Shown here: one piece after another, positions 5,988-25,869 of the stretch
Numbering within the stretch: position 1 is the first letter of the stretch
How the letters are laid out: the number at the start of each line of letters is the position of its first letter
DNA from: Bacillota bacterium
GTDB lineage: Bacteria; Bacillota; Limnochordia; Limnochordales; DUMU01
Assembly (NCBI GenBank): GCA_012839805.1
Contig: DUMU01000007.1
Span: 78,374-142,373 of the forward strand
Direction: 5' to 3'
DNA length: 64,000 bases
Translations under genes and position numbers: made by a program
Notes under the pieces: generated by a model
Seen by the model: the letters and a program-made list of their open reading frames with translations, nothing else
What the model was told of the DNA's origin: nothing
The model's database searches: none

Positions 5988-7493
5988 TTACGCCGCGCCC
6001 TGGGGAATCACCTCCTGCTCCTGGTTCACCGGTTCCGAAGTACCGCGATCCGGCAGGGCGCGTGGTTGCGCGCCAGGTATGCCATTGGACACGGCGCCTA
6101 ACTGGCCGGTGGGCGGGGTGCCGGGTAGGGTGGTTCGCACAGCGGGGCGCGGGTGCTCGCGCCACGCTGCCTTCCCCATACGCAAATACTGAACCAGCGG
6201 CCGGCGGCTCGGGCAACTGTAGGCGCAAGAGCCGCATTCTACGCAGTCCGCCAGCCCCCAGGTGACGGCCTGGTCCAGCCGGCCGGCGGCCACCAGGCGG
6301 GCAAGCTGGAACGGAGCGAGACCTTGCGGGCAGGCGTCGAGGCAGCGCCCGCAACGCAAGCAGGGACCGGCCTCGTCCACGGGCGACGCCCGGGCTGTGA
6401 AGGCCAGTACCCCGCCGCAACCCTTGAGCACGGGGACGTCGAGGTCGGCCACGGCGGTGCCCATCATCGGGCCGCCCAGGATGACCTGTCGCAAAGCGCT
6501 CTCGTCCACCCCGGCTGCCTTGAGCAGTTCCCGAACCGGGAGCCCGATGGGCACCCAGTAGTTGGCGGGCTCGGCGACCGCGTCGCCGTCGACGGTTACG
6601 ATGCGCTGGAGGAGAGGTTCGCCCGTAAGGAGAGCCCGGCCCAGGGCCGAGGCTGTGGCTACGTTATGGACGACGACTCCTACGTCGGCAGGTAGACCCC
6701 GGCGGGGAACGACCCGGCCCGTGATGGTGCGGACCAGGGTGCGTTCAGCGCCCTGGGGGTAAAGGCTGGGAAGGACCCGAACCTCGAACCCGGGCAAACC
6801 TCGTACCATCTGCCGGAGCAGGGCGATGGCATCCGGCTTGTTGTCTTCGATCGCGATCACAACCCGGGAAACGCCAAGAGCCCGCTTCATCGCCCTTGCT
6901 CCCCAGAGCAGGGTGGGGGTTTCTTCGACCATCAAGCGGTGATCGCAGGTGAGATAGGGTTCACACTCGCAACCGTTGAGGATCAGGAAGTCGGGGCGGG
7001 GATCATCCCGGGGAGTCAGCTTGACGTAGCTTGGAAAAAGGCCTCCGCCCATGCCCACGAGCCCGGCTTCTCGAGCCAGCCGGCGGATTCCTTCGGGATT
7101 CATCTCTTCCGGCGAGCCGCCATCGCCGAGAAAGGAGCGGTCAAGGGGAAGGAAGGAGTCTCGACCGTCGTTTTCTATCACTACGGCGGGTATCCACAGG
7201 CCGGAAGGATGTAGACGCGGCTCAACGGCGACCACCCTGCCGCAGATGGGCGCGTGGACGGGGGCGCCAAGGCCGCGCGCTTCCCCGATCTTCTGACCCC
7301 GGATGACCCGGTCACCCTTTTGTACCAGCGGCGAGCACGGCTCCCCGGCGTGTTGCCACAGGGAGACGATCAAGCGCTCGGGCGGTGGCAATCTCTTCAC
7401 TGCTTTCCCGGCGGTGGCTGCCTTCTGCTGGGGAAGCTTCAACCCTGAATGGTGGGGGTTCGTTATTCGTTCCACGAAAGCGGCTGCAAACAC
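5988..7493 (-). CDS. rnfC: electron transport complex subunit RnfC (canonical copy)
   Basis: GTG start. RnfC_N-like QHAGEPCSPLVQKGDRVIRGQKIG...PVHAPICGRVV. NADH/FMN signatures GMGGGLFPS and NGCECEPYLTCDH. Two ferredoxin motifs, CLRCGRCLDACP and CVECGSCAYSCP. Confidence 0.9.
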   Translation of the reverse strand: MFAAAFVERITNPHHSGLKLPQQKAATAGKAVKRLPPPERLIVSLWQHAGEPCSPLVQKGDRVIRGQKIGEARGLGAPVHAPICGRVVAVEPRLHPSGLWIPAVVIENDGRDSFLPLDRSFLGDGGSPEEMNPEGIRRLAREAGLVGMGGGLFPSYVKLTPRDDPRPDFLILNGCECEPYLTCDHRLMVEETPTLLWGARAMKRALGVSRVVIAIEDNKPDAIALLRQMVRGLPGFEVRVLPSLYPQGAERTLVRTITGRVVPRRGLPADVGVVVHNVATASALGRALLTGEPLLQRIVTVDGDAVAEPANYWVPIGLPVRELLKAAGVDESALRQVILGGPMMGTAVADLDVPVLKGCGGVLAFTARASPVDEAGPCLRCGRCLDACPQGLAPFQLARLVAAGRLDQAVTWGLADCVECGSCAYSCPSRRPLVQYLRMGKAAWREHPRPAVRTTLPGTPPTGQLGAVSNGIPGAQPRALPDRGTSEPVNQEQEVIPQGAA

Positions 7494-7502
7494 GGGCGCA
7501 CC

Positions 7503-7537
7503 CTCCTCCGGAGGAGACCGAGATAGTGCGCACTATC
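7503..7537 (-). promoter_or_regulatory. two perfect palindromes in the rnfC leader: CTCCTCCGGAGGAG (covers the SD) and GATAGTGCGCACTATC
   Basis: Read directly: 7503-7516 is a 14-nt perfect palindrome containing GGAGGAG 9 nt upstream of the GTG start. 7522-7537 is a 16-nt perfect palindrome. Confidence 0.45.
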
Positions 7538-7742
7538 ACTAAGGCGGGGAAATAAACACGCGCTCGTGCGCACCACTTGACTCCTTTGCCTCCTGAGCTT
7601 ACCACGCAAGCGGTTCAGCTGCAAGAGATTAGTGGCGAAATTCACGAACTGGTTTCACCAGCTCCAGCCACCGGCCCTGGACCGGCAGCCGCCTCCCGTT
7701 AGCGACCTATAGCTAAAAATACCGGCGGCCGGCTGCGGGGCT

Positions 7743-8813
7743 TCAGCGTGCTACCGCGTCGTAGGGGGCGGCGTTGCTGCCGCGCACGGTTATGACGGTA
7801 CGGTTGGGGACACAGACGATGGACTGGGAGGCATTGGTGATCCAGCCCGTGCGCACGCAGACCTTGTCCGGGCAATCGGACTCGCGCACCCGTATCCGCC
7901 CGGGCTCGACCTCCAGGATCATGCGGCCGCGGGGTGTGTTGAGGGTTAGGAACCGGTTCGTGCGCAAAGGCACGATCATTCGTAACTCACCGGCGACCCG
8001 GACCACTGCCTCGGGGTTGGCAGGAGGCGCGGCAAGACTTCCATGCCACAGCAGGATCAGGAGTGCTGCGAAGGCCAGGACACTGGCTATAGCGCCATCT
8101 CCCACCCGTAGAGAAAGACGGTTACGCCGGGAGAAGAGCGCTTGTGAACGTTCCGCCAGCCCGAGCAGTCGCACGGTCAGCCGGGAAACCTTGGGGGGCG
8201 AGACGTTTCCCCGCGAGGGGGCGGTCTCGGCCGGGAGAGCGCCGGGGTCAGCCACGAGTACCGGCAGGAGATAGGCGGCGATCACGCCTATCAGGGCTCC
8301 GGTAGGCAGGGAAAACCAGAGTAAGTACGGAAGGTAGGCCAAGATGGCCCAGCCGCCGGTGAGGAGGCGGGCGACGAGGAGTTGGGCCACATTGTGGGTG
8401 GCCGCTCCCGCGATGCTCACTCCCGTGGGCGAAAGACGGCCGCGGGCGACGCGAGAGGTGACGGACATAGCTCCGACGCTGGCGATGCCGCCGCCAAGCC
8501 CGAAGAGGAAGGGGGCCGAGAGGAAAGTACCCGTGGCCAGCGACCCGAGGACCTGGCGGGCAACCACGAGCAGCAAAGCCTCCCGCCACCCCCAGATGAG
8601 CACTGCGAGCAAGGAGGCCAGGTTGGCCAGGCCGATCTTGGCGCCGGGCACGGGCAGTGCCGGGAGCAGGCTCTCGAAAACGTAGAGGGTGACGGCGATG
8701 GCGAGGAGAACGCCCAGGTAGGCTGCCTTGCGGGTGCTATTCCCCAGGCCTTTCGTGGCCACGGCCACCGGCGATGCGGTTCCGGTGACGGGCAGGGCAC
8801 GAACCTCGTTCAT
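7743..8813 (-). CDS. fusion protein: Gx transporter (Hpre_diP_synt_I, PF07456-like) N-terminal membrane domain plus NusG domain II (PF07009-like) C-terminal domain
   Basis: N-terminal half is polytopic (LGVLLAIAVTLYVFESLLP...GAKIGLANLASLLAV...ATHNVAQLLVARLL). C-terminal half has a TM helix followed by VVRVAGELRMIVPL...ILEVEPGRIRVRESDCPDKVCVRTGWI...IVCVPNRTVITV. ATG at 8813 overlaps the apbE stop (ATGA). GTG at 8822 is an alternative. Confidence 0.75.
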   Translation of the reverse strand: MNEVRALPVTGTASPVAVATKGLGNSTRKAAYLGVLLAIAVTLYVFESLLPALPVPGAKIGLANLASLLAVLIWGWREALLLVVARQVLGSLATGTFLSAPFLFGLGGGIASVGAMSVTSRVARGRLSPTGVSIAGAATHNVAQLLVARLLTGGWAILAYLPYLLWFSLPTGALIGVIAAYLLPVLVADPGALPAETAPSRGNVSPPKVSRLTVRLLGLAERSQALFSRRNRLSLRVGDGAIASVLAFAALLILLWHGSLAAPPANPEAVVRVAGELRMIVPLRTNRFLTLNTPRGRMILEVEPGRIRVRESDCPDKVCVRTGWITNASQSIVCVPNRTVITVRGSNAAPYDAVAR

Positions 8814-10057
8814 GGGGCCCACCGCCCCCGCCCGGCCAGCTCCACCTTACCCTTCAAGCCGCTCGTGACCTTGACCGAAAAGTCGGGGAGCACGAAGATT
8901 CCTTCCACACCGGGCAAAGACTCGAGTAGCTCCAAACCCTTGACCGGCCCTAACACGAAGGCGGCGGTAGAGAGCGCATCGCCAAGCCCCCCGTCAGGGG
9001 TGATAACCGTCACGCTCAGGACCTGCCCGGCCGGCCACCCGGTGTGAGGATCGAGCAGGTGACTGTAGCGGGTGCCGTCATACTCGAAATACCGCTCGTA
9101 ATCCCCGGAGGTGGCGAGCGCCTCGTCGGCCACCGGGACTATGGCGATCACGCTGCTCGGGTCACGGGGATCCTGTACCCCGGCCCGCCAGGGCTCGCCA
9201 CTATTCTTCTTGCCGAGGGCATAGATGTTTCCGCCGAGGTCTAACAGGGCGCTGGTGACCCCGTGCCGGCGTAAGACTTCGGCGGCCTTGGCTACGGCAT
9301 AACCTTTGGCAATACCGCCCAGGTCCAGGGCCTGGCCCGGCCGCCGGAGCCTCACCTTCCGGCCGGCCTCGTCGATCTCTACGTCCGAGAACGAAACCAG
9401 GGACAGGAGTTTGGCGATGGCATCTTGGGAGGGCGGGCGATGGCCCCGCAGGTGGGTCGGGCCCATGCCCTCGAGGGGCGACTCCGGCGTGCTCGCCTCC
9501 GTGGGAGCAGTCTCCTCGGTCTCGACGAAGCCCCAGAGATCGACCAGGGGCGCGATGGTGGGATCGAACGCGCCGTGGCTCGCCTCATGGACGCGCCGGG
9601 CGGTCAACAGCATGGAGACGAGATCGGGGGATACCCGGATCCACGTCCCGTCGCCCGCGTGCCGGTTGATCTCCGCCACCTGGGTGTCGTCCCGGAACCG
9701 GTCGACTTGCGCGGCCAGCCGGTCGAGTTCGGCCAAGGCGGCCTGCACGGCCTTTTCCGCCTGGGTCCGGGTTGCCGCCGTCGCCCGGATCTGGGCGTAC
9801 GTTCCCATCGTAAAGGAGACTGCCTGGGCCTCTGCCGCCTGGGTCTGGTCGGCAGGGACGGCCGACGGTCCGGCTTGATTCGTGGTCACCGCGCCGGCGG
9901 CGTGCTGGCCCTCGCGACCCTGGCAGCCGGCCACGCCCAGGGCAACGGCGAGGAGCAACAGGCCGGTGAGGGCGGCGCCGGGCCCTCCCCGGCGAGGGCC
10001 GAACGAGATCCCGGCGGAACTGGTCACAAATCCCGGGCGAACCGTTGCTATCACCAC
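8810..10057 (-). CDS. apbE: FAD:protein FMN transferase ApbE, probable lipoprotein
   Basis: 415-aa ORF with lipobox LGVAGC. ApbE-like blocks FTMGTYAQIRA, FDPTIAPLVDLWGF, LDLGGIAKGYAV, LLDLGGNIYALG, ATSGDYERYF, HLLDPHTG. GTG start 22 nt after rnfB; exact start uncertain. Confidence 0.85.
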   Translation of the reverse strand: MVIATVRPGFVTSSAGISFGPRRGGPGAALTGLLLLAVALGVAGCQGREGQHAAGAVTTNQAGPSAVPADQTQAAEAQAVSFTMGTYAQIRATAATRTQAEKAVQAALAELDRLAAQVDRFRDDTQVAEINRHAGDGTWIRVSPDLVSMLLTARRVHEASHGAFDPTIAPLVDLWGFVETEETAPTEASTPESPLEGMGPTHLRGHRPPSQDAIAKLLSLVSFSDVEIDEAGRKVRLRRPGQALDLGGIAKGYAVAKAAEVLRRHGVTSALLDLGGNIYALGKKNSGEPWRAGVQDPRDPSSVIAIVPVADEALATSGDYERYFEYDGTRYSHLLDPHTGWPAGQVLSVTVITPDGGLGDALSTAAFVLGPVKGLELLESLPGVEGIFVLPDFSVKVTSGLKGKVELAGRGRWAP

Positions 10058-10078: not shown

Positions 10079-10939
10079 CTAAGAAGCCGCCTGACCGGCC
10101 CCGGCCGGGAGCGCTTCCCCGGCCTCCTCCTCTCTCCGGCACTCAATGACATGAGTGGGACACTTGGCCGAACACTGGCCGCAAGCGATGCAAAGCTCCG
10201 GCGTGATCGTGGCGAGGTTGCCCAGGACGTGGATGGCATCGTGTTCACAAAGGCGTTCGCAGATGTTGCAGGCGATGCAGCCCGCCTGGCAGACCTGGCG
10301 CACCAGCTTCCCGGGGAGGGGTGACAAGCAGTTGACGAAGGTGCGGCGGCCGGCATCTACCAGCTGGATGACGCCCCGCGGGCAGACCTGGGTGCAGATG
10401 CCACAGCCGGTGCACTTTCTTTCGTCCACCACGGGCAATCCTTCGGGACCCATGGTAAGGGCATCGAAGGGGCAGGCTTCTACGCAGGTGCCAAAGCCGA
10501 GACATCCGTAGGTACAGGCCTTACCTCCCCCGCTCACGAGTTCGGCCGCCCGGCAGTCGGGGAGCCCCCGGTACTCGCCGGTACGTTTGGCGAGGGCTTG
10601 CGTGCCGGCGCAGAAAACGTGGGCCACCTGGCGAGTCACGCCGGCCGGGGCGGCAACGCCCAGGACTTCGGCCACCCGGGCAGCCACGCCCGGGCCACCG
10701 GCCCGGCAGCCATCGGCCGGGGCTTTGCCCTCCACGGCCGCCTTGGCAAAGCCGGAGCAGCCGCTGAAACCACAAGCGCCACAGTTGGCGCCGGGAAGGA
10801 GGTTCGCCAGCAGTTCAACCCGGGGATCTTCCTGAACGGTGAACCGCCGGGAAGCCCACACGAGCAGTACTGCGAAAGCGACGGCCAGCAATCCCATGGA
10901 GAGGGAGGCGGCCAGGATCGAGCTCAGCATGCTTTCCAC
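10079..10939 (-). CDS. rnfB: electron transport complex subunit RnfB
   Basis: N-terminal TM helix, CGACGFSGCSGFA cluster motif, then several CxxCxxCxxxCP ferredoxin repeats. Confidence 0.9.
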   Translation of the reverse strand: MESMLSSILAASLSMGLLAVAFAVLLVWASRRFTVQEDPRVELLANLLPGANCGACGFSGCSGFAKAAVEGKAPADGCRAGGPGVAARVAEVLGVAAPAGVTRQVAHVFCAGTQALAKRTGEYRGLPDCRAAELVSGGGKACTYGCLGFGTCVEACPFDALTMGPEGLPVVDERKCTGCGICTQVCPRGVIQLVDAGRRTFVNCLSPLPGKLVRQVCQAGCIACNICERLCEHDAIHVLGNLATITPELCIACGQCSAKCPTHVIECRREEEAGEALPAGAGQAAS

Positions 10940-11008
10940 CTCATCTCATCACGACACCTTACCTGACGAGCTTTGGGTCGGTAGCCCTTTTGCGTCCCTG
11001 CACGAACC

Positions 11009-11599
11009 TCAAGATGCCGGCACGAGCCCGCTGAACCCCATGAAGGTCAGGCTCATAATGGCGGCGATCAGAAGCGAAAGAGCCGGCCCTTGCAAGCTCA
11101 AGGGCACGTCGGCGAACTCCAGCTCTTCGCGCAAGCCGGCCATCAGCACAATGGCGAGAGTCCAGCCCACCGCGCTACCGACCGAGAACACCAGGGTCTC
11201 GAGCAGCCCGTAATCGCTCCCCGCCACCAGCAAGGCCACCCCGAGGATGGCGCAGTTGGTGGTGATGAGCGGCAGGTAGATTCCGAAAGCCTCGTAGAGC
11301 GAGGGACTGTAACGGCGGATCACCATTTCGAGGAATTGCACCAGCGTGGCGATGACCAGGATGAAGACGACGTACTGAAGGAACGGCAGGTGGAAGGGTA
11401 CGAGGATGTACCGCTGGATCGCCCAACTGACCGCACCGGATATGGTCATGACGAAGGTTACCGCCGCTCCCATTCCCAGGGCGGTCTCGAGGCGCTTGCT
11501 CACGCCGAGGAAGGCACAGATGCCCAGGAACCGGCTGAGGATGAAGTTATTGATCAGGGCCGAACCCACGAAGAGCAGAACCAGTGAACTGAAGCTCAT
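11009..11599 (-). CDS. rnfA: electron transport complex subunit RnfA
   Basis: 196-aa polytopic protein: MSFSSLVLLFVGSALINNFILSRFLGICAFLGVS...ITTNCAILG. Confidence 0.9.
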   Translation of the reverse strand: MSFSSLVLLFVGSALINNFILSRFLGICAFLGVSKRLETALGMGAAVTFVMTISGAVSWAIQRYILVPFHLPFLQYVVFILVIATLVQFLEMVIRRYSPSLYEAFGIYLPLITTNCAILGVALLVAGSDYGLLETLVFSVGSAVGWTLAIVLMAGLREELEFADVPLSLQGPALSLLIAAIMSLTFMGFSGLVPAS

Positions 11600-11615
11600 G
11601 ATGCCCCCTGCCCCC

Positions 11616-12359
11616 TTAGTTACTCAAACTGAGCCCCGCCGTTGAGGCCCCGGCTCCCGTGCCCGTCGTCGCAGCGGTTACGCCGGCCCCGGAGCCACGG
11701 GCGCGTTCGAGGCGACGGGCGGCCCGTTCTTTCGCAAGGCGCGACCCGAGGTTGAAGAGCCCGACGATCGCGCCCATGGTCAGGAAGGCGCCCGGCGGCT
11801 GCAGCATCACCCGCCAGGTGACGAAGCCGGGCGGCATTACCGGATGCCCCAGGAGCGAACCACTGCCTAGCAGCTCACGGACGATCCCGATCATGACCAG
11901 TGAGATGGTATAGCCGATGCCATACCCGAACCCATCGGCCAATGCCCGGTCGACGGGGACGTGGGAAGCCCACGCCTCGGCCCGCCCCAGGATGATGCAG
12001 TTGACTACGATGAGCGGAACGAAAAGCCCGAGGACCTTGTGCACCTGGGGCACGGTGGCGGCGAGTACCAGGTCGGCGATGGTGACGAAGGTGGCAATGA
12101 TGATGGTGTAGACCGGGATGCGGACTTCTCGCGGGACGATCTTGCGGATGGCGGAGACCATCACGTTGGTACCGACCAGCACGAAGATGACCGCCGCGCC
12201 CATGGCGAGGCCGTTCACTACCGCGGTGGTGACGGCCAGGGCAGGGCAGAAAGCGATCATCAGCCGGAAGGGCGAACTCTCCGTCCACACGCCTCGGAGG
12301 AAGTCCGTCCCCAGCGTCCGTAGCTTGCTCGGCTCACGACCGGTGCTCACAGCGCTCAT
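11616..12359 (-). CDS. rnfE: electron transport complex subunit RnfE
   Basis: NPFRLMIAFCPALAVTT... and VVNCIILGRAEA motifs. Has a ~40-aa Ala/Gly/Thr-rich C-terminal tail. Confidence 0.9.
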   Translation of the reverse strand: MSAVSTGREPSKLRTLGTDFLRGVWTESSPFRLMIAFCPALAVTTAVVNGLAMGAAVIFVLVGTNVMVSAIRKIVPREVRIPVYTIIIATFVTIADLVLAATVPQVHKVLGLFVPLIVVNCIILGRAEAWASHVPVDRALADGFGYGIGYTISLVMIGIVRELLGSGSLLGHPVMPPGFVTWRVMLQPPGAFLTMGAIVGLFNLGSRLAKERAARRLERARGSGAGVTAATTGTGAGASTAGLSLSN

Positions 12360-12483: not shown

Positions 12484-13581
12484 TCACTCTATCAAGCCGG
12501 ACGCGCGAGCCGCTGCGATCCCGTAGCGAACGGCTTCGGCCACCGCCTGAGAGGAGACGGTAGCCCCGCTGATCGTGTCGAGGTCCTCACCAACCTCCAG
12601 GCGGGCGTCGATGCTCTTCCCGGCGAACTGGCGCTGGAAAGCGGCATCAGTGGCGATCTTGTCTCCCACGTCCGGGGTTTCGCTCTGGTGGTAGACCCGG
12701 ACGTTGATCAGCGTCTTGTCGGCCGGATCGATCACCCCGAGCACCTCCACCGGCCCTTCCATCCCGGCGGCCGCGGCCCGGAAACCGATCGCTCCGGTCT
12801 CTCCGGTGGAAGAAATGCCCTGGAAGATCTCGGGGTCGGTCTTGGCTCCTTCCGCGGGGAAAGTGCCGATGGAGACGAACATGACCACGTCCACCCCCGC
12901 ATCGGGCGGTACCACGGCGAGCAGGGCTTCCGCCGGGTCGCCGGCCAGCTCGGGCAGGGCGTTAGTAGAACCCTCGCTCGTGGTGCTACCGCCCCCGGTG
13001 GCTGCCGGCACCGCTGCTGCCATCACCACGGGCTGGCCCATCCGTTGCATGGCGGCTTGGATACCCGTCCGGACGATATCGACCGCGGCCCGTGACGATA
13101 TGGTGGCGCCGGTGATGCCGTCGATGTCCTGGTTCAGCTGATAGGCATCGGTGAGGGACTTACCGGCAAACTGGTCGGTGAAGGACGGCTCTTGAATGCG
13201 AGAGCCGAGCCCCGGCGTCTCCGAAAGCTGGAGAACGCGGATCCCCACCAGCGACTTGCGGTCGGCACTCAGCCCGATCGCCATCTTGATCGGCCCGCCG
13301 AACCCGTCGCCGCTCGCCTTGAAGGCGTACCCGAGCACGCTTCCGTCCGCGGCGAGTACTCTGTAGACGGCATCGTCGGCCTCGGCCGAGCTGGGCGGTA
13401 CCTCTTCTTCGAAGCTGGCCGCCTCCGGGAACAGCCCCTTGAAGCCCAGCTCGAGGTCGGCTTTCTGCCGGTTGGCTTCGATGATGGGGTTGAGCCAGGT
13501 GTAAAAGCCGGCCAGAGTCCCGCCGGATAGGATGGAAACCAGAGCCAATACCAGGATCATGCGCCAGGTGGAACTACGCAC
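12484..13581 (-). CDS. rnfG: electron transport complex subunit RnfG with two tandem FMN-binding domains
   Basis: N-terminal anchor MILVLALVSILSGG. Two FMN_bind-like modules end in DIDGITGATISSRAAV and DLDTISGATVSSQAVA. 365 aa, against ~200 aa for a usual RnfG. Confidence 0.88.
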   Translation of the reverse strand: MRSSTWRMILVLALVSILSGGTLAGFYTWLNPIIEANRQKADLELGFKGLFPEAASFEEEVPPSSAEADDAVYRVLAADGSVLGYAFKASGDGFGGPIKMAIGLSADRKSLVGIRVLQLSETPGLGSRIQEPSFTDQFAGKSLTDAYQLNQDIDGITGATISSRAAVDIVRTGIQAAMQRMGQPVVMAAAVPAATGGGSTTSEGSTNALPELAGDPAEALLAVVPPDAGVDVVMFVSIGTFPAEGAKTDPEIFQGISSTGETGAIGFRAAAAGMEGPVEVLGVIDPADKTLINVRVYHQSETPDVGDKIATDAAFQRQFAGKSIDARLEVGEDLDTISGATVSSQAVAEAVRYGIAAARASGLIE

Positions 13582-14560
13582 GAACAGAAACCTCCTTTGG
13601 ACGCGGCAGCGTGAGGCGGTTGATCAGCGGTGTGCACATGTTGAAGAAAAGGATGGCAAAGGAGACGCCCTCCGGATAACTGCCCCAGAGCCGGATGACC
13701 ATGGTCATCACGCCGATGCCCAGGGCATATATCCACCGGCCCCATTTGGTAAGCGGGCTCGTCACCCAGTCGGTGGCCATGAAGAACGCTCCCAGCACCA
13801 ATCCACCGGAAAGAACGTGAAGTAGCGGATCTTGCCCGCCGGCCCAGGCGAAAAGGGCCGCCGAGCCCAGCACCCCCGCCGGGATTCGCCAGTCGATGAC
13901 CTGAAAAGCTATGAGTATGAGACCACCGAGCAAGAGAGCCGCTATAGCAGTCTCACCCAGTGAACCGCCATGATAGCCCGCGAGCAGTTCAAGGTAGGAG
14001 GGAACGCCTGCCCCCTTGGCCATCGCGGCCAGGGGGGTAGCGCCGGTTACCGCGTCCACCCCGCGTATCGGGCCGCCGAAATCCGTGAGGATCTGGGGAA
14101 AGGTGACCAGCAGGAAAACCCTCCCGACCAGCGCCGGGTTGAACAGGTTATGACCCAGGCCGCCGAACGCGTGCTTTCCCAGCAGGATGGCGATGGACGC
14201 TCCGATCACCACCGTCCAGAGGGGAACGGAGGGCGGCAGGGTGAGCGCGAGCAAAAGTCCCGTCACGGCCGCACTTCCATCGAGGAGATACCGCCCGGGC
14301 GAACGGCGCCGGGCCCAAACCGCCAGGGCCTCGACCGCCAGTGCGGTCAGGACCGATGCCCCGACCACCCGGAGCACCCGGAGTCCGAAGATGTAGGCCG
14401 CCACTCCCACTACGGGCAAGAGCGTGGCAAGCACCAAGTACATGGCCCGCTGGGCGGTAAGCGGTGAATGGAGGTGGGGAGAGCTAGAGAGAAGCAGAAG
14501 GCGTGTTCCAACGCCTCCGGTCTCCCGTCGCGGCTCAAGCGTTGGCGAAACCGTGTTCAT
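13574..14560 (-). CDS. rnfD: electron transport complex subunit RnfD
   Basis: 328-aa polytopic protein with the flavinylation motif VDAVTGATPL. ATGA overlap with the upstream gene and an 8-nt overlap with rnfG. Confidence 0.9.
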   Translation of the reverse strand: MNTVSPTLEPRRETGGVGTRLLLLSSSPHLHSPLTAQRAMYLVLATLLPVVGVAAYIFGLRVLRVVGASVLTALAVEALAVWARRRSPGRYLLDGSAAVTGLLLALTLPPSVPLWTVVIGASIAILLGKHAFGGLGHNLFNPALVGRVFLLVTFPQILTDFGGPIRGVDAVTGATPLAAMAKGAGVPSYLELLAGYHGGSLGETAIAALLLGGLILIAFQVIDWRIPAGVLGSAALFAWAGGQDPLLHVLSGGLVLGAFFMATDWVTSPLTKWGRWIYALGIGVMTMVIRLWGSYPEGVSFAILFFNMCTPLINRLTLPRPKEVSVRA

Positions 14561-15972
14561 CGGTTACCTAACCTCACTTCTGCGTGACAGCTGGCTACTG
14601 CTACCTGTTGCTCCCGTGGCCGTTTACCGGTCGGGGACGCCTTCCCGTTGGAGGATGAGGCGATGCCGGTTTGACGGCCGTTCTCTTCGGAAGCTTTCTC
14701 CGGCTTACGGCGGGAGAGCTCATGCTGGGCGAGCCTGATCAGCTGAACCAGGGGGAGCCGCGCCGGGCATGCATAGGCGCACAGGCCGCAGGCATAACAC
14801 TTTTCCGCTCCCTGCCGGGCCGCCTCCTCCCAGCGATGGAGACGGGCGAGGCGGCCGAGGACCGCGGGAGCAAGTCCCTCGGGACATATGGCAACGCACC
14901 GGCCACAATGGAGGCAGACGCCCACGCCTGGGGAGGCTTCCAGAAAGGCGTCACCCAGCGCGAGATACCCCAGATCGCCCAGGCTGATGTAAGCATCTTC
15001 CAGGGGGAGAGCTTCACCCGCCAGGTAGCCGCCCCGAACCAGGAGACGAAGACGTGCGTAATCGACCCCCGCGGCTTCGAGGAGGGCGCTAACCGGAGCC
15101 CCGATGGGCACCCGGTAAGTACCGGGCCGGGCGACCGCGTCCCCCCCTATGGAGACGAGGACATCGACGGGAGGCAGAAACGTCTGCAAGCTCCTGCCCA
15201 CGGCCGCCGCGATCTCGACGCCGACAATGGCCGCATTGCTGAACCGGGCGGCCAGCATCTCCGGACGCCCCGCCGGGTAACCGGCCGGAACTAGCAGCAC
15301 TTCGGCGGGGAGGAGGTCGCGCCGTAAAGCGGCAAGTTCAGTGGCGGAAAGGGTCCCTTCAGCTATCGCCAGCCAGCCCTGGCGGTTGCCTGGCGCTCCC
15401 GGGCCGGATAGGATGGCGGTTACTCCGGCGGCGACGTCGGCCCTCCGTTCGTGAAGCAGGGCCCGGCGACCGAAGACTCCCTCGTCGGGGTCGCACCCGT
15501 TGAAAACGATAATGCCCGCGGTGGTGAGGGGCTCAGGGTCTACGCCGGCAAGGCGGCAGGCGTGGCGGAGGCGATCCCCGACGGGGGTTGTGCCTGCCCG
15601 GCGGTTGGTGCCTTGCTTCTCTGCCCCGGCTTCCGCCACCGGCTGGATGGCAACGAACGGAACCAACCCGGACCCACCCGTGTCCGGGGCCGGCCGGAAG
15701 CCGGCGTCCACCACTTTGCCGGCCACCGGGCTGAAAAGGCAACCGTCTTCAGGTGCATCCTGCGGGCCGGCCAGTACTGTACCGGGCCTCACGAGATCAC
15801 CCTTTTTCACTACCGGCACGAGAGCCCGCCCGGTAAGGTCTTGCCCGCGAAAGACCAGAATTGAAGGGGAGGTCAGGACCTGGCTGGGTTGCCAGCCTCC
15901 CTCCCCTCGGGTAAACAGGGACCGCCCCGGTACACGTAGGAGCCGGCCCCGTCCCCGCCTGCGCCACGGCAT
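14557..15972 (-). CDS. RnfC-like subunit lacking the NADH/FMN-binding signatures
   Basis: Has VVKKGDLVRPGTVLAG...FSPVAGKVV, CLHCGRCVAICP and CYACGLCAYACP. The glycine-rich and ECEPY positions read RLAGVDPEPL...FNGCDPDEGVFG. ATG at 15972 is preceded by gggaggg with an 8-nt spacer. The ORF extends to 16059. Confidence 0.8.
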   Translation of the reverse strand: MPWRRRGRGRLLRVPGRSLFTRGEGGWQPSQVLTSPSILVFRGQDLTGRALVPVVKKGDLVRPGTVLAGPQDAPEDGCLFSPVAGKVVDAGFRPAPDTGGSGLVPFVAIQPVAEAGAEKQGTNRRAGTTPVGDRLRHACRLAGVDPEPLTTAGIIVFNGCDPDEGVFGRRALLHERRADVAAGVTAILSGPGAPGNRQGWLAIAEGTLSATELAALRRDLLPAEVLLVPAGYPAGRPEMLAARFSNAAIVGVEIAAAVGRSLQTFLPPVDVLVSIGGDAVARPGTYRVPIGAPVSALLEAAGVDYARLRLLVRGGYLAGEALPLEDAYISLGDLGYLALGDAFLEASPGVGVCLHCGRCVAICPEGLAPAVLGRLARLHRWEEAARQGAEKCYACGLCAYACPARLPLVQLIRLAQHELSRRKPEKASEENGRQTGIASSSNGKASPTGKRPREQQVAVASCHAEVRLGNR

Positions 15973-16068: not shown

Positions 16069-16803
16069 TCAGCGCTCGGCGGCCTTCAGGGCGTTGGCTA
16101 CCGCTTCCTTGTATTTGTTGCCGCTGTTGGTCGCGCCGGTAACCACGTCCACTTGCTCGATCTCAGCCACCGAGCTCTTGCCGACGAAACGCTTTTGCAT
16201 TTCGTCCCGGGCGGTGACGGCGACTTTGTACGAGTAGTTCTTCCAATCCTTGAACTTACCGTCGGTGACCTCGTCCAGCCGCACCGCCTTGATCTTGTCG
16301 TTTTCCACCGTCACCCAGGCCACGGCGTAGCCATGGCTGTCCGCCTTGCTCTTGCCAAAGAAAGTACCTTCGAAGTACTTGGCTTTGGATTCAGGAGTCA
16401 CGCGCGCCTTGGCCAGCGCCCGCTCTACCGCCTGAATCCATTTGCGGCTGCTGCTGGTCGCCTTGGCGTAGACATCGACCTGGGGGCCGTTGTTGGCCAC
16501 GAAATCTTTTTCGAGCTTCTCCTTGGCCTCTTTGGCTGCCGGCCAAGGATACTTATCGTAGTCCTTGGGTTCCCCGAACTGGGTTATTTCGCTCAGGGTG
16601 ACGCGTACGATCTTGTCATCCTTGATGACTAGTACGGCCATGCCATAGCCATGGTCGTCTGCGTCTGAGATACCGGTGGTAACCCCATCCTTGTAGATCT
16701 TCCCGGCCGTCCGGCCCGTGAGCGGCAGTGCTACTGCAGTTGCTACCGCGAGGATCCCGACGAGTAAGACGACGCGGCTCCAACCTTTGAGAACGCGATC
16801 CAT
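16069..16803 (-). CDS. extracytoplasmic protein with two FMN-binding (FMN_bind, PF04205-like) domains
   Basis: ATG at 16803 after aggaggg (8-nt spacer). Signal or anchor WSRVVLLVGILAVATAVAL. Two repeats start YKDGVTTG.../FEGTFFGK... and end VDVYAKATSSS and VDVVTGATNSG. Confidence 0.8.
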   Translation of the reverse strand: MDRVLKGWSRVVLLVGILAVATAVALPLTGRTAGKIYKDGVTTGISDADDHGYGMAVLVIKDDKIVRVTLSEITQFGEPKDYDKYPWPAAKEAKEKLEKDFVANNGPQVDVYAKATSSSRKWIQAVERALAKARVTPESKAKYFEGTFFGKSKADSHGYAVAWVTVENDKIKAVRLDEVTDGKFKDWKNYSYKVAVTARDEMQKRFVGKSSVAEIEQVDVVTGATNSGNKYKEAVANALKAAER

Positions 16804-16955: not shown

Positions 16956-16973
16956 TTGTGCCTTTCTTCACAA
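16956..16973. promoter_or_regulatory. Rex-like operator (TTGTGcc-N4-TTCACAA)
   Basis: TTGTGCCTTTCTTCACAA read directly. Matches the 18-bp Rex consensus TTGTGAA-N4-TTCACAA except for two positions. Lies in the divergent region between the rnf cluster and the protease gene. Confidence 0.45.
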
Positions 16974-17186
16974 TGTTGGTCAAACGAAAATGGCCACCCG
17001 GCCAGCCTCATTCCTCGGTTGCCTTGTTCTCCCCGGCTGAACTTTACGCCTCCGGCGCGGGATTGTCAACCGGCCTCTACCGCCCCCTTCGTTTTCGCCT
17101 GCGGCTCAATTACATTAGCAGGAGTTTCCTGGTGAGGATCGAAGAATACTAGGTAGCACTATTTACCGACCGGTGGGAAAGGAGAT

Positions 17187-20100
17187 ATGCAGATGCGGCC
17201 CGCTTTCCGTCGCAAGTTGCCGCTGGCCTGCATTCTGGCGGCTGGGTTGCTTCTTTCGTGCACTGCGCCTCTCTTGTCCGCTGCCGGACCGGCGACGCGG
17301 GCTCCATCAGTATCGCCACAGCCCGGGCTTGACGGGGGGGCGATCGTTCCTCCGCCCTCAGGATCGCCGCGGCAAGAGTTCCTGCCAGGTGAGGTCCTGG
17401 TCAAGCCGAAGATCAAGATCCATCCTGGGGTGGCCATGTCCCAGGCGGTGGCCAGCGCCGAGGTCGGAGTGAAGACTTCCGTCGCCGAGTTGGTGGGGAT
17501 CGAGCCACAGGCGGTCAAGGTCAAGCCCATCTCGATGCCGGATGGAAGTCCCCTGCTGGTGGTAAGCATCCCCGAGGGATCGGAGGAGGAAGTGGCCAGG
17601 GCCCTGAGCGCCCGGCCTGACGTGGAGTACGCCGAGCCGAACTACCTTTGGTACCCGGACGATGCCGTCTTCCCGACGGATCCACGTTTCAGCTTCAACT
17701 ACGACTTGCACAACACCGGCCAGGTTTTCGTGCCGCCCCTCGGCTTGAGCGGAACGCCGGACGCGGACATCGACATGCCCGAGGCCTGGGGCATCCATCA
17801 GGCGAGCGGCAGCATCGTCGTGGCCGTCATCGACACCGGCATCTTTATCGACCATCCCGAGCTCGCGGGGCAGATTTGGACGAACCCGGGCGAAATCCCG
17901 GATAACGGCGTGGACGACGATGGGAACGGATACGTCGACGACGTCCACGGCTGGGACTTCTTCAATAACGATAACACCGTCTTCGATTTGGCCGATGGCG
18001 ATGAACATGGCACACATGTTGCCGGGACGATCGGCGCGCTGATGAATAACGGCATCGGTTCGGCCGGTATCAACGGCAAGATCCAGATCATGCCGTTGAA
18101 GTTCATCGGGCCGAACGGCGGATCGACTGAGGATGCAGTCCGGGCCATCGAATACGCTGCGTCTTTTGGCGTGAAAATCTCCAATAATAGCTGGGGCGGT
18201 GGGGGCTACAGCGACGCACTTCGCGATGCCATAGCTAGCTCCGGCATGCTTTTCGTAGCCGCCGCGGGAAACGATGGTTTGGATAACGACGTCGCTCCGC
18301 ACTACCCGTCCTCTTACGACCTGCCCAATGTGCTGGCCGTGGCCTCCAGCGACTGGAACGACGAGCTCTCCGGCTTTTCCAACTACGGGGCGACCAGTGT
18401 CGACCTGGCCGCGCCCGGGGACTTCATCTTCAGCACCTGGGTTCGGAACGTCAACGGAACGGCACAGCCTGCCTTCGCCTGGGCTTCGGGCACGTCAATG
18501 GCTACACCGCACGTAGCCGGGGTGGCTGCTCTCCTGCTCGACAAGTACCCGGACCTGCCGCTCTATCCGGGAGCGCCGGGAGCGCAGCCGGACTCACCGA
18601 CATTGAAGGACGTACTCATGTACTCCGGGGATTACAAACCGGCCTATCAAGGGCTCATGGTTGCCCCGGTCCGGTTGAACGCGGAGCGTGCTTTGGGCCA
18701 GGTCATCGCTCCTATCATTCAGAATCTCACCGTTAACGGCAGGCCTTTTGGCAACCGCACAACTCCGGGCCAGGCGGTGGCGTTCACTGTAACGGCCGAA
18801 ACCCCGTTCAGCACGGTGGCTTCGATCACCTGGGATTTCGGCGACGGGCAGGAGGCAGCCGGGGCGACCGTTACTCACGTCTATGGTCGGCCCGGAGTAT
18901 ATGAGGTCCGGGTAACGGTAACGGACGACGACGGCGATGCATCAACCGCCTTGGCCACGGTCGAGGTGGTAGAGGACAACAGAACGGTTGTCCTGGTGGA
19001 CGACGACGGCAGTGCTGCCAGCGAGATTCCTTTGATTAACGCTCTAGAAGCAGCAGGGCTTCCCTATGTGGTAGCCGCCCCGCAGGCAATTCTGCGGCTC
19101 AACCCCCAGGACCACCCGAACCCGATCTTCTGGGAGACGGGAACGGAGTTATCTGCACTTAACGTATGGGAACAGGGCTTCATCGCCGCGTTCCTCGATG
19201 CGGGTGGGCGTCTCTTCCTGAGCGGTCAGGATGTCTTGGAGGGACTGGCGGGAAGCGACTTCCTGACCCGGTATCTCCACGTTCAGGCCTTCCGGAGTGA
19301 TACGGGGGCAGACGTGATCGAAGGTATCCCCGGCGATCCGGTCACGGGCGGTATCGGTCGCATTCGCCTCCAATTCCCGGAGGGGATCACGGACCGGGCC
19401 GATGACCTTACTCCCACCGAGGATGCCGACCCGATCTTTACGACCTCCCTCAACACCAGCCCGGCGTTGCGCTATATCTCGTCGGATCAGCAAGGACCGC
19501 GCCTGGTCCTCTCTACCGTTTATTTCGGAGCAATCCCGCTCACTAACCCGGATCCGTCCAATGCCCGCGGGTTCGTGCTCAGCATCTACCATTTCCTGAC
19601 CGGGCAGGATGTCAATCTGCCACCGGTCGTCCTCAAGACCGGCGGCTCGTTCCAGATCGGCGACGCTCCTCTCACTGTTCAGGTCAACGCGACGGTAGAG
19701 GACCCCGTTCCCCAACCACTGGCGGTGGCGTACGCCTACTGGGACTTCGGCGATGGTTCACCGGTGGTAGGGGCGAAACCGCAAGAGAACTTCGCGGCCA
19801 GCCATACGTACCAGGCTCCCGGCTTTTACCGGGCGACGCTGCGGGTAGTTGATGACCAGGGTGAGGACACCATCGCCTATCGCAACTTCCTCGTACTCCC
19901 GCCAGGCACGAAGATGATCGCGGTGGACGACGGCGACAATCCCGGGACGTTCGGCCTGATCACCGGGGTTCTCGATCAGCTGGGGGTCCGGTATGTAGCC
20001 GTAACCCCGGACCTGCTGGTGGACGAGACCGGCATTCTCGACGGGGCCTGGCAGTACCCGCTCTTGTGGACCACCGGCGAGATCGGCTATACCGACCACT

Positions 20101-22259
20101 CGGAAGTGGCGGCCCTCGAAGAGTTCATGGACCAGGGCGGGCATCTCATCCTCTCCGGACAAGATGAGCTCTTCAACATCTGGGAAGCCGACCCGCAACT
20201 GATGGAGTTCGCTACGGACTATCTCAAGGTTGCCGACGTGGCCCATGACGTAGGGGCTCCGCACATCCTTGGGCAGCCGGGCGACCCGATTAGCGACGGC
20301 GTGGAGATCTACCCGCAGTTCCCCTTCGCCGACTGGAGCGACATCATCTTACCGGCTCAAGAAGCGTCACCGCTCTTCTGGCGGGACATGGCGGACTACG
20401 GCTACCCTGACTACTACCTCCCGAATGCTTTACGCTACGATGGTAGTTACCACTTGCTCTTCCTTGCCTTCCCGCTTGAAGCAGTACCGTACCAGTATCG
20501 GTTGTCGGCGTCACCCACGTCAGCTGCCGGTCCGGGAGGGGCGGTGGCCGTGCCTCTGGCTGGTGAAAGCAGCGCCAGTACGGGCACAGCGCAGGTGCTC
20601 AAGAGCCAGCGAAAAGCCGGTGCTGCCAAAGGCATGCAGCTTGAGCAACTGAAGAGTCTTGCCTGGCGGCCAACCGGCGAAGTGGGCCCCTTCGTACCCG
20701 GTACCTTGCCCTTGCTCCTTGGCCGAGCCTTGAGTGCCTCCGACGCCGGTATTGCGCCGCCGCTTGCCCCCCTGGTGCTTGCTGTGAGCGCGGACCAGGG
20801 CCCGGTCGAGCCGGGCGTGGCCGTGACTTTGCAGGCGCTGGCCGAAGACGTAGACGGAACGATCGTGGAGGCCTGGGTGGAGACCGGCGATGGAGCGCGG
20901 ATCGATGTACTGGCGGGCGATTCACGGGTGATAGCGGACGTGACGCACACCTATAGCGAGCCCGGCGTCTACGATGTCACTTACTACTTTAAGGACGACG
21001 CGGGTAACGAAGCGGTCGGCAGCAGCCGGGTGACCGTAGCCTACCTGCCGCAGGCTAGCCTTGAACCGGCGGCGGTGGAGGTGAGCCTCTCCCCCGCGAT
21101 CCAGGCGGAACGGTCACTTACTCTCCACAACTCCGACGAGCAAGCCGAGCTGCACTTTACTGCGGAAGTAGCAGAAGCTCCCGCATGGCTCACCGTCGAG
21201 CCCGCCGCGGGAACTGTGTCCCCGGCGAGTTCGGCCAGCCTCCGCTTGCTGTTCAATACCGACGGCCTGGAAGCCGGTCAGGACTATACCGCAACGGTGG
21301 TCGTCCAGACCGACGATCCCGACCGGCCGCGGTTCGACGTGCTGGTTACGCTCCACATCGTCACTCCGGCGGCTGCGGTCAACCCGGGTGAGCTCAGCTT
21401 CATGCTAAACCCGGACGAGCAGGCGACCCGGGCGATCACGGTCTCGAACGAGGCGTCGGGGGAGGGAGCCGTTCTGGCCTTCACCGCCAGCGTAGACGGC
21501 GAGACGGGATGGCTCAGTGTCAGCCCGGCCCAGGGAGAAGTCGCTCCGGAGGGTACGGCGGAACTAACCGTTACGGTCGATACCACGGCGCTGGTCGCCG
21601 GTGACTACCAGGGGAAGATCGTGATCGCAACTAACGACCCGGAGAAGCCGGAAATCCAGATACCGGTCACCCTGCAGGTGCGACCCATCAACCTTCAGGT
21701 ACTGAGCCCGCAAGCAGGCGACGTCTGGACGGGAGTGAAGGAGATCCGCTGGCAGGCGGAGGACCCTGAAAGCCAGCAAGAGACGGAAGCCCTCAAGATC
21801 ACGCTGGAGTACAGCCCCGATGGAGGCACGACCTGGAAGAGTATCGCCACCGATGAAGCCAACGATGGGCGTTACAGTTGGGATACCCGTTCGGTGGAGA
21901 AAGGCGGCAACCGCTTCGTCGTGCGGGTGACAGCGACTGACCCCGAGGGGCACGCGGCGACGGCCACGAGCGGGGTATTTACCGTGGCGGTAGTTCGGAA
22001 CATGGTCACCCACGGTCCGAACCCGGCCAGGGAGTACGTCACCTTCTACTACAACCTGAGCGAACCGGCGAAGCTCTACGTCTATGACATCAGCGGTCAC
22101 CTGGTGCTGGCTCAGGATCTCGCGCCTGCCGCCAACCACTATCGGTGGGACCTGACGGACGCAGCGGGTCGACCACTGGCCAGCGGGCTGTACCTTTACA
22201 CGGTAGTGACCGAATCGGGCCAGGCCTCGCCGGTCGAACGCCTGGTAATCAAGCGGTGA
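17187..22259 (+). CDS. secreted multidomain subtilisin-like (S8) peptidase with PKD repeats and a T9SS-type/FlgD-Ig-like C-terminal domain
   Basis: Signal peptide and an I9-like propeptide. Catalytic triad contexts VAVIDTGI, HGTHVAGTIG, SGTSMATPHVAG. Three PKD-like WDFGDG.../THTY...Y repeats, two ~100-aa Ig-like repeats, and a C-terminus GPNPAREYVTFYYNL...LYVYDISGHLV...WDLTDAAGRPLASGLYLYTV. The second ATG (17193) has better SD spacing. Confidence 0.88.
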   Translation: MQMRPAFRRKLPLACILAAGLLLSCTAPLLSAAGPATRAPSVSPQPGLDGGAIVPPPSGSPRQEFLPGEVLVKPKIKIHPGVAMSQAVASAEVGVKTSVAELVGIEPQAVKVKPISMPDGSPLLVVSIPEGSEEEVARALSARPDVEYAEPNYLWYPDDAVFPTDPRFSFNYDLHNTGQVFVPPLGLSGTPDADIDMPEAWGIHQASGSIVVAVIDTGIFIDHPELAGQIWTNPGEIPDNGVDDDGNGYVDDVHGWDFFNNDNTVFDLADGDEHGTHVAGTIGALMNNGIGSAGINGKIQIMPLKFIGPNGGSTEDAVRAIEYAASFGVKISNNSWGGGGYSDALRDAIASSGMLFVAAAGNDGLDNDVAPHYPSSYDLPNVLAVASSDWNDELSGFSNYGATSVDLAAPGDFIFSTWVRNVNGTAQPAFAWASGTSMATPHVAGVAALLLDKYPDLPLYPGAPGAQPDSPTLKDVLMYSGDYKPAYQGLMVAPVRLNAERALGQVIAPIIQNLTVNGRPFGNRTTPGQAVAFTVTAETPFSTVASITWDFGDGQEAAGATVTHVYGRPGVYEVRVTVTDDDGDASTALATVEVVEDNRTVVLVDDDGSAASEIPLINALEAAGLPYVVAAPQAILRLNPQDHPNPIFWETGTELSALNVWEQGFIAAFLDAGGRLFLSGQDVLEGLAGSDFLTRYLHVQAFRSDTGADVIEGIPGDPVTGGIGRIRLQFPEGITDRADDLTPTEDADPIFTTSLNTSPALRYISSDQQGPRLVLSTVYFGAIPLTNPDPSNARGFVLSIYHFLTGQDVNLPPVVLKTGGSFQIGDAPLTVQVNATVEDPVPQPLAVAYAYWDFGDGSPVVGAKPQENFAASHTYQAPGFYRATLRVVDDQGEDTIAYRNFLVLPPGTKMIAVDDGDNPGTFGLITGVLDQLGVRYVAVTPDLLVDETGILDGAWQYPLLWTTGEIGYTDHSEVAALEEFMDQGGHLILSGQDELFNIWEADPQLMEFATDYLKVADVAHDVGAPHILGQPGDPISDGVEIYPQFPFADWSDIILPAQEASPLFWRDMADYGYPDYYLPNALRYDGSYHLLFLAFPLEAVPYQYRLSASPTSAAGPGGAVAVPLAGESSASTGTAQVLKSQRKAGAAKGMQLEQLKSLAWRPTGEVGPFVPGTLPLLLGRALSASDAGIAPPLAPLVLAVSADQGPVEPGVAVTLQALAEDVDGTIVEAWVETGDGARIDVLAGDSRVIADVTHTYSEPGVYDVTYYFKDDAGNEAVGSSRVTVAYLPQASLEPAAVEVSLSPAIQAERSLTLHNSDEQAELHFTAEVAEAPAWLTVEPAAGTVSPASSASLRLLFNTDGLEAGQDYTATVVVQTDDPDRPRFDVLVTLHIVTPAAAVNPGELSFMLNPDEQATRAITVSNEASGEGAVLAFTASVDGETGWLSVSPAQGEVAPEGTAELTVTVDTTALVAGDYQGKIVIATNDPEKPEIQIPVTLQVRPINLQVLSPQAGDVWTGVKEIRWQAEDPESQQETEALKITLEYSPDGGTTWKSIATDEANDGRYSWDTRSVEKGGNRFVVRVTATDPEGHAATATSGVFTVAVVRNMVTHGPNPAREYVTFYYNLSEPAKLYVYDISGHLVLAQDLAPAANHYRWDLTDAAGRPLASGLYLYTVVTESGQASPVERLVIKR

Positions 22260-23487: not shown

Positions 23488-25869
<2,382 letters not shown>

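Follow-up and report, generated by a model that had tools for sequence, protein, structure and literature searches.

Two RnfC proteins encoded in one Limnochordales rnf cluster: the copy next to rnfD lacks the FMN/NADH motifs and keeps both [4Fe-4S] motifs

Introduction

In many anaerobes the Rnf complex is the principal ion-motive enzyme; where rnfC is present, it is routinely annotated as a ferredoxin:NAD+ (nicotinamide adenine dinucleotide) oxidoreductase. Here, we analyse an rnf gene cluster from a bacterium of the order Limnochordales, located within a 64,000-nucleotide stretch of contig DUMU01000007.1 (positions 78,374 to 142,373, assembly GCA_012839805.1), hereafter the window. The cluster encodes two RnfC proteins: a divergent paralogue next to rnfD, called RnfC' in this paper, and a canonical RnfC at the tail of the cluster.

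In the solved Rnf structures, one RnfC per complex is clamped by the N- and C-terminal arms of RnfD, and electrons pass from the riboflavin of RnfD through the clusters C2 and C1 to flavin mononucleotide (FMN) and NAD+ (PMC9588780, PMC11889175). NqrA is an RnfC homologue without NAD(H)/FMN chemistry that is docked on the RnfD/NqrB homologue (PMC12174285, PMC4014512), and relocation of the terminal redox site is the route proposed for its origin (PMC4014512). The Rnf of M. acetivorans (MmcA-RnfCDGEAB) makes no use of NAD(P). Only two [4Fe-4S] clusters are ascribed to its RnfC, and the proposed way out for electrons is through RnfG, on the outer face (PMC4023990). Likewise, multi-flavinylated RnfGs were proposed as a second, extracytosolic electron exit (PMC8238504). 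In A. woodii, a second paralogue, RnfC2, was once suggested to take the place of RnfC on the Rnf complex (PMC8760232).

Compared with the characterised RnfCs of A. woodii (9eri_C), C. tetanomorphum (7zc6_C) and A. vinelandii (8ahx_C), RnfC' shares the four-domain fold and the two [4Fe-4S] motifs, and its gene immediately precedes rnfD, as in characterised Rnf, with G, E, A and B coming after. Unlike them, it lacks the FMN-phosphate loop and the ECEPYLT, YPQGAEK and NVxT motifs and fails both TIGR01945 and PF01512, while an extra canonical RnfC is encoded in the cluster. NqrA has neither of the Fe-S clusters left and functions with NqrF and quinone, whereas RnfC' keeps its eight cysteines. The operon nqrABCDEF has NqrF and no RnfB, whereas in the window cluster RnfB (PF04060 and Fer4) is present and the Pfam scan found no NqrF or NAD_binding_1 gene. 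RnfC' thus looks like an intermediate state on the path from RnfC to NqrA.

The type III methylenetetrahydrofolate reductase system of A. woodii also has a second RnfC paralogue in one genome. However, there the extra RnfC2 is the intact NADH-binding copy, which carries a fused MetV domain and is encoded alongside metVF, whereas here the operon copy is degenerate and the extra one is a plain RnfC. Neither copy of the window has the additional N-terminal domain or metVF neighbours of the RnfC2 type, and RnfC' also lacks the site. The Rnf of M. acetivorans has no second RnfC, and a multihaem cytochrome serves as its exit module instead of flavoproteins; a homology search seeded with the cytochrome-associated protein P0012 returned no methanogen sequences. 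The multi-flavinylated RNF clusters of Meheust et al. 2021 (PMC8238504) combine a tandem-FMN RnfG, apbE and an extra FMN_bind protein, as is the case here; that paper does not mention RnfC (0 occurrences) and gives no account of a degenerate rnfC paired with an intact one. No description of such a pair was found in the rest of the literature searched. We consider it reasonably probable that RnfC' is a functional Fe-S relay or scaffold C subunit and that the NAD(H) site is contributed by the canonical RnfC, expressed from a separate transcription unit.

Results

Sequence motifs of RnfC'

The gene of RnfC' had first been described in a reading of the DNA sequence alone (hereafter the sequence-only reading), and its coordinates and the quoted peptides of its product proved correct. 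ATG 15972 is the true start, preceded at 8 nt by a GGGAGGG Shine-Dalgarno site, and the MPW N-terminus is common to the orthologues. RnfC' is 31% identical to the tail RnfC of the window over ~446 residues.

The two proteins behave differently in profile searches. The tail RnfC matches PF01512 at 2e-46 (158 bits) and RnfC_N at 1e-29, and it exceeds both NCBIfam cut-offs for RnfC, with 495 bits for TIGR01945 and 459 bits for NF003454. It also matches the solved chains from end to end (7zc6_C 2e-108, 9eri_C 1e-104, 8ahx_C 7e-103). RnfC' gave no match to PF01512 at E<=0.01, and its score of 127 bits for TIGR01945 is under the cut-off of 246 bits. In Pfam it still matches Fer4 dicluster and SLBB (29 bits) and, weakly, RnfC_N (19 bits). 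The solved RnfC chains are matched at only 1e-24, mostly via the C-terminal half with the SLBB and ferredoxin parts.

The RnfC' family was aligned with 43 canonical RnfCs, 48 sequences in total. Four motifs conserved in at least 80-90% of the canonical proteins are altered in RnfC'. The segment GMGGAxFPxxVKL, present in at least 90% of them, is replaced by AGVDxxxF with a deletion of six residues; NGxECEPYLT reads NGCDPDxGV[F/Y], YPQGAEK reads YPAGRPE and NVxT reads GVE. In NuoF-type sites, the FMN phosphate is bound by the glycine-rich loop within the first of these motifs. RnfC' has two intact CxxCxxCxxxCP motifs (CLHCGRCVAICP and CYACGLCAYACP), with the eight cluster cysteines invariant in 48 of 48 aligned sequences, and the segment after the second cluster motif is conserved (P407/L408, PLVQLI). 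The claim of the sequence-only reading that this RnfC has no NADH/FMN signatures and retains both Fe-S motifs therefore holds in the Pfam search, the motif table and TIGR01945 alike. That reading had also named a conserved but offset glycine loop as an observation that would speak against it; a regular-expression search (G.GG..[FY]) and the alignment revealed no offset or cryptic loop anywhere in RnfC'.

The replacement motifs are invariant in all four full-length aligned orthologues and recur in other members of the family, so the changes are not an effect of chance or sequencing. The orthologues show a weak match to PF01512 of 21-34 bits (158-171 for intact copies), which is confined to profile positions 27-127; the glycine-loop segment is therefore absent though the domain remains. 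Taken together, these alignments support the view that RnfC' lacks the sequence features needed for binding of FMN and NAD(H), with the RnfC fold and the [4Fe-4S] motifs kept.

The RnfC' of the window also has a low-complexity C-terminal tail of 48 aa (residues ~424-471, window 14557-14700) with low model confidence, which reaches the start of rnfD. It is not present in the orthologues, all of which stop right behind the last helix (…LELVK).

Predicted fold

An AlphaFold2 model of RnfC' built from the 48-sequence alignment reached a mean predicted local distance difference test (pLDDT) score of 83.3 and a predicted template modelling score of 0.82, with disorder confined to the N-terminal ~24 residues, the C-terminal ~30 and a short linker. 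A Foldseek search against the PDB placed the solved RnfCs 9eri_C, 8rbm_C and 7zc6_C at the top (425-444 aligned columns, template modelling (TM) score 0.76-0.78), followed by NqrA (TM 0.60-0.65), and NuoF-type subunits scored far lower. The four-domain RnfC fold, consisting of a barrel-sandwich, a NuoF-like alpha/beta, an SLBB-like and a ferredoxin domain, is thus present in the model. Together with the weak RnfC_N and the SLBB matches, it confirms the earlier claim that the N-terminal, SLBB-like and Fe-S parts were kept. Between helix 131-141 and strand 154-158 the model has 12 residues, at the place where canonical proteins carry the glycine loop and FPxxVKL. The motifs and the model suggest that RnfC' has lost FMN binding.

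It seems quite unlikely that RnfC' has a remodelled site that still binds flavin or NAD(H) and remains catalytically competent. Such a site would fit the NuoF-like alpha/beta domain, which is kept and constrained, as well as the two acidic residues that persist in the change from ECE to DPD and the Tyr, Pro and Gly of YPxG. The orthologue from locus L001 even lies just above the PF01512 gathering score (33.7 versus 31.2 bits). However, every orthologue has lost the FMN-phosphate glycine loop by deletion and not by substitution, NVxT has lost its Asn and Thr, no offset loop exists, and the canonical copy, which has been retained, would be redundant beside a competent RnfC'.

RnfC' family and selection

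The RnfC' family is small, with three representatives at 50% clustering, whose scores of 828, 676 and 333 bits are followed by a drop to ~200. Intact RnfC' genes are present in the window, in L001 (a Limnochordales metagenome-assembled genome, MAG), in L004 and L011 and on the short contigs L008 and L009; the proteins P0002 and P0003 also belong to the family. The organism of the window is a Firmicute of Limnochordia type that comes from biogas reactors. A genome scan for more loci gave two true ones, one of which was a re-hit of L001, and a metagenome scan gave only contigs of 2-3 kb. The loci L006 and L007, retrieved by the patterns, turned out to be ordinary or unrelated Rnf clusters and were rejected as members.

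Selection was estimated by the Nei-Gojobori method on six intact open reading frames (ORFs, 41-99% identity), using pairs with measurable divergence. The ratio of nonsynonymous to synonymous substitution rates (omega) was 0.16-0.29 for RnfC', compared with 0.12-0.28 for the tail RnfC and 0.09-0.16 for RnfD in the same genome pairs. In the pair L001-L004, the nonsynonymous rate (dN) of RnfC' was 0.25 in the NuoF-like domain, 0.23 in the SLBB domain and 0.19 in the ferredoxin domain, and overall the NuoF-like domain evolves no faster than the other two. About 120 alignment columns are invariant, including the eight cluster cysteines and the new motifs. By these estimates RnfC' is under purifying selection and is not decaying.

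These results also bear on the view that RnfC' is a functionless duplicate, which the sequence-only reading had listed as a possible objection. Its dN is ~2x that of the tail copy, and the window copy has the disordered 48-aa tail, both of which would be expected of decay. On the other hand, all six ORFs are intact despite identities as low as 41%, the omega values are those of a constrained protein, the invariant columns are numerous and, in the window, the end of rnfC' overlaps the beginning of rnfD. The pseudogene reading was rejected on the intact ORFs and omega, and loss of function appears very improbable. The earlier proposal that RnfC' may still relay electrons through Fe-S clusters and has probably lost its NAD(H)/FMN capacity is well supported by motifs, predicted fold and selection.

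Gene order, outgroups and origin of the pair

The same 11-gene order was found in four genomes (the window, L001, L004 and L011). It opens with the FMN_bind gene and rnfC', continues with rnfD, G, E, A and B, apbE and the Hpre/NusG_II gene and, after a spacer, reaches the canonical rnfC; in all four loci, genes for a ~270-aa protein and an M20 peptidase come next. The co-occurrence of rnfC' and the tail rnfC, which the sequence-only reading had proposed to check in relatives, is thus found in four genomes. Across the four long loci, RnfC' is 41-59% identical and the tail copy 53-80%. The distance of ~7 kb given earlier between the two copies is correct; however, the intact copy is not distal or unlinked, as it is the terminal gene of the same same-strand cluster.

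The closest outgroup according to RnfD (55-56% identity) is L016, which has a canonical first-position rnfC and no tail copy, and which also carries the upstream FMN_bind gene, a 345-aa RnfG, apbE and Hpre/NusG_II. L021, another Limnochordia MAG, resembles it: its only rnfC is canonical and stands in first position, and a tail copy is absent. With 45-49% identity to the first-position RnfC of L016 and 43-51% to its other top database relatives, the tail copy of the two-RnfC clusters is an ordinary RnfC. The simplest origin of the pair would be a duplication of rnfC in this Limnochordales subclade, after which the first-position copy diverged at an accelerated rate. In the similarity ranking RnfC' is nearest to P0050, P0051 and P0052 and to the tail copies, which is compatible with a clade-specific duplication and also with an older paralogy; the branch of RnfC' is very long.

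L016 was also used to judge a strict rule by which a tandem-FMN RnfG goes with a degenerate RnfC. As this locus combines the 345-aa RnfG and the upstream FMN_bind protein with a canonical RnfC, the rule was rejected. Two further observations concern the loci themselves. L004 (JBLNBY010000318.1) is a 15-kb contig in a MAG labelled Bacteroidota, and it is probably mis-binned because it carries a complete Limnochordales-type cluster with an RnfD 77-80% identical to those of the window and L001. In L021, positions 10347-12080 encode an RnfD-RnfG fusion protein of 577 aa.

Cluster layout and putative regulatory sites

The features of the cluster are listed in Table 1. The claim that rnfC' is the first gene of the operon stood only in part: it does lie directly ahead of rnfD, but an FMN_bind gene precedes it and probably makes it second in its transcription unit. 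The start of this FMN_bind gene is likely the ATG at 16803, which follows an AGGAGGG site, and its product is weakly PplA-like (NF041941 PplA, 41 bits, below the cut-off). The gene is kept in L001, L011 and L016, and in L004 by ORF position only. In the window protein the first FMN_bind domain has AKAT in place of the usual [ST]GA[ST]. The rnfD start and the rnfC' stop overlap by 4 nt in the window, and the corresponding gap is 13-50 nt in the orthologous loci. RnfG carries one [ST]GAT flavinylation motif in each FMN_bind domain, TGAT at 157 and SGAT at 338.

Table 1. Positions of genes and putative regulatory sites of the rnf cluster in the window.
Feature	Position	Strand	Evidence or remark
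Promoter-like TTGACA-17-TAAAGT	17041..17069	-	Upstream of whole cluster
Palindrome TTGTGCCTTTCTTCACAA, Rex/CRP type	16956..16973	.	2 mismatches; between upstream promoter-like site and FMN_bind gene
Membrane-anchored protein with two FMN_bind domains	16069..16803	-	PF04205 2e-13, two stretches; directly upstream of rnfC'
rnfC' (RnfC paralogue, 471 aa)	14557..15972	-	Two [4Fe-4S] motifs; FMN/NADH motifs gone
rnfD	13574..14560	-	PF03116 5e-106; TGAT flavinylation motif
rnfG, 365 aa, two FMN_bind domains	12484..13581	-	PF04205, two stretches
rnfE	11616..12359	-	PF02508 2e-55
rnfA	11009..11599	-	PF02508 5e-58
rnfB, FeS domain and polyferredoxin	10079..10939	-	PF04060 and Fer4 families
apbE flavin transferase	8810..10057	-	PF02424 2e-87
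Membrane protein, Hpre_diP_synt_I and NusG_II domains	7743..8822	-	PF07456 2e-39, PF07009 1e-24
Promoter-like TTGCAG-17-TAAGCT	7596..7624	-	In spacer upstream of canonical rnfC
Degenerate TGTGA-N6-TCACA-type palindrome TAGTGATAGTGCGCACTA	7524..7541	.	Between spacer promoter-like site and rnfC
Canonical rnfC, 501 aa	5988..7493	-	PF01512 2e-46; last redox gene of cluster

The Hpre_diP_synt_I/NusG_II gene invariably lies 3' of apbE in the rnf clusters compared. In the outgroups it is followed by genes of an energy-coupling factor (ECF)-type CbiQ and an ATP-binding cassette (ABC) ATPase (L016 17784-20316; L021 16459-18697), and this neighbourhood hints that its product is part of a transporter, which might supply ApbE with flavin.

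A spacer of 249 bp separates the Hpre/NusG_II gene from the canonical rnfC in the window, and it measures ~200-250 bp across the conserved clusters. It holds a weak terminator-like hairpin at 7733-7721 and a promoter-like site that aligns with TTGCAG/TTGCAA-17-TAAAGT in L001 and L004. No known RNA or riboswitch was found in it, since at Rfam gathering thresholds only the transfer-messenger RNA (tmRNA) and tRNAs were detected in the window. The palindrome in the spacer has better-fitting counterparts in L001, L004 and L011. TGTGA-N6-(T/G)CACA palindromes precede both units in L001 (8686-8703 and 18236-18253) and L004 (2744-2761 and 12259-12276), and in L011 they lie at 6097-6114 and 15372-15389 (1 mismatch). 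Such a palindrome is therefore present upstream of the main rnf unit and of the tail rnfC in all four two-RnfC genomes, and none was found in the outgroup L016. The TGTGA-N6-TCACA core is common to Rex and CRP/FNR-type operators; a tblastn search of the window with an approximate B. subtilis Rex query gave nothing convincing (E 0.3). The arrangement of these sites suggests two transcription units under one redox-type regulator.

With a promoter-like site of its own behind the hairpin, the tail rnfC might belong to another enzyme altogether. It would then encode a soluble NADH-oxidising module that works elsewhere, as RnfC2 does for MetVF of A. woodii and PrdC for proline reductase, and the Rnf of these bacteria would be NAD-independent. 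RnfC paralogues recruited to other enzymes are indeed known (RnfC2, PMC8760232), the Rnf of M. acetivorans is NAD-independent (PMC4023990), and the tail RnfC has a sub-threshold match to PrdC (169 bits). However, no metVF, prd or pdu genes lie beside the tail rnfC, its product passes the RsxC/RnfC equivalog cut-offs and carries RnfC_N, and its place at the cluster end is conserved despite the deep divergence of the tail copies. We consider this explanation improbable.

Several neighbouring genes were noted as well. Positions 5151-5960 (-) encode a ~270-aa protein that is hydrophobic near its N-terminus and matches no Pfam or NCBIfam model; its gene lies after the tail rnfC and before the M20 peptidase in the window, L001, L004 and L011. 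On the other side, the cluster is adjoined by a gene for a secreted S8 peptidase of 1,690 aa (17187-22259, +), and the L011 cluster by a similar S8 peptidase with PKD repeats. Beyond it lies a membrane H+-pyrophosphatase gene (23380-25869, +), which is likewise near the cluster in L001. The tmRNA gene is at 26036-26386 (-).

Degenerate RnfCs in other lineages

In a set of 196 RnfC-like sequences, 64 fail at least one of two patterns of our own, for the glycine loop and the ECEP-type motif; the set is biased towards similarity to RnfC'. All 64 keep the two cluster motifs. A handful of them are canonical proteins with one substitution, e.g., P0089. Every degenerate-RnfC locus that could be read carries another redox module; L012 (P0050) was too short to judge. 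At L002/L003 (P0012), a multihaem cytochrome c is encoded upstream, RnfB is fused to Pyr_redox_2, and NuoE/F-like genes follow downstream. L020 (P0081) and the P0213 locus have an upstream cytochrome c, and at L019 (P0063) a pyruvate:ferredoxin oxidoreductase (PFOR) fusion is encoded upstream, with an NqrF-like protein (NAD_binding_1) on the downstream side. L013/L014 (P0052) encode a 548-aa RnfG and, where the window has rnfC, a Fer4_11 protein. These lineages thus co-encode a different extra redox module rather than a second RnfC, in a sample of loci that is small and has no matched control. The pattern fits the idea that, once the terminal redox site relocates, RnfC can lose its FMN/NADH site and yet stay in the complex, and the comparative data favour some form of module relocation.

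The Fer4_11 polyferredoxin at the tail slot looks as if this slot encoded a plug-in for the C subunit. The two copies could accordingly act in series, with RnfC' permanently on RnfD and the canonical RnfC docked onto RnfC', e.g., where the FMN/NAD cleft has been left empty close to cluster C1. The canonical RnfC would then be an additional NADH module, and the Fe-S wire would be longer. The strict co-conservation of rnfC' and rnfC in four genomes and the conserved, remodelled pocket of RnfC' would agree with this. Such an arrangement is nevertheless unlikely, as the three solved Rnf complexes show no contact between RnfCs (PMC9588780, PMC11889175) and the tail copy keeps its RnfD-docking features, including RnfC_N and the C-terminal helix.

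Discussion

The presence of two C subunits in one cluster suggests that the pump can run without NAD or can swap its output module. In the reading that we prefer, RnfC' is an Fe-S relay or scaffold subunit and the NAD(H) site comes with the canonical RnfC. A duplication of rnfC would have left the first-position copy free to take on the role of an electron relay or scaffold, a state midway between RnfC and NqrA, which has no cofactors. RnfC' would be made together with RnfD and would be the default occupant of the C site on it. It would keep the route from the riboflavin of RnfD up to C1, with the step to FMN and NAD+ gone. Without an FMN site, RnfC' would therefore not exchange hydride with NAD(H), and a complex with RnfC' bound would not reduce NAD+. 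Electrons from ferredoxin would enter such a complex via RnfB and RnfA/E. They may exit on the periplasmic side, through the tandem-FMN RnfG with its second FMN domain and the PplA-like flavoprotein, or through the clusters of RnfC' (C1) to another partner. The canonical RnfC, transcribed separately, would bring the NAD(H) site, most simply at the same docking site on RnfD.

Several points weigh against this reading. The loss of FMN binding is judged from sequence and from a model without ligands. The conserved pocket residues of RnfC' (NGCDPD, YPAGRPE and GVE) could bind another ligand or partner. L016 pairs a tandem-FMN RnfG with a canonical RnfC, and an extracytoplasmic flavin chain alone therefore does not imply loss of the NAD site. 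Moreover, the same type of palindrome precedes both units, so differential regulation is not implied by these sites.

A broader proposal, which we regard as speculative though possible, is that the C subunit is an exchangeable output module. The Fe-S-only RnfC' (NAD-independent, with a periplasmic flavin wire) and the canonical RnfC (ferredoxin:NAD+ or NADH-fed) would be chosen through the redox-responsive TGTGA-N6-TCACA operator. RnfC would have lost its FMN/NADH site repeatedly, upon recruitment of another terminal redox module such as cytochrome c, an NqrF-like protein, an RnfB fused to GltD, a polyferredoxin or a second RnfC, and proteins such as RnfC' would be living intermediates between RnfC and NqrA.

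If the first-position C subunit cannot touch NAD(H), the electron acceptor would be mis-assigned in reconstructions of biogas-reactor Limnochordia, and the same would apply to the many other lineages whose 'RnfC' has no FMN/NADH motifs. The interest of the degenerate/intact pair would grow if the broader pattern of Fe-S-only RnfCs holds up. The paired genes are a natural experiment, as one cluster encodes an RnfC with and an RnfC without the NAD site. The pair makes testable the role of NqrA-like, cofactor-poor subunits, as well as the exchange of C subunits that was raised for RnfC2 of A. woodii.

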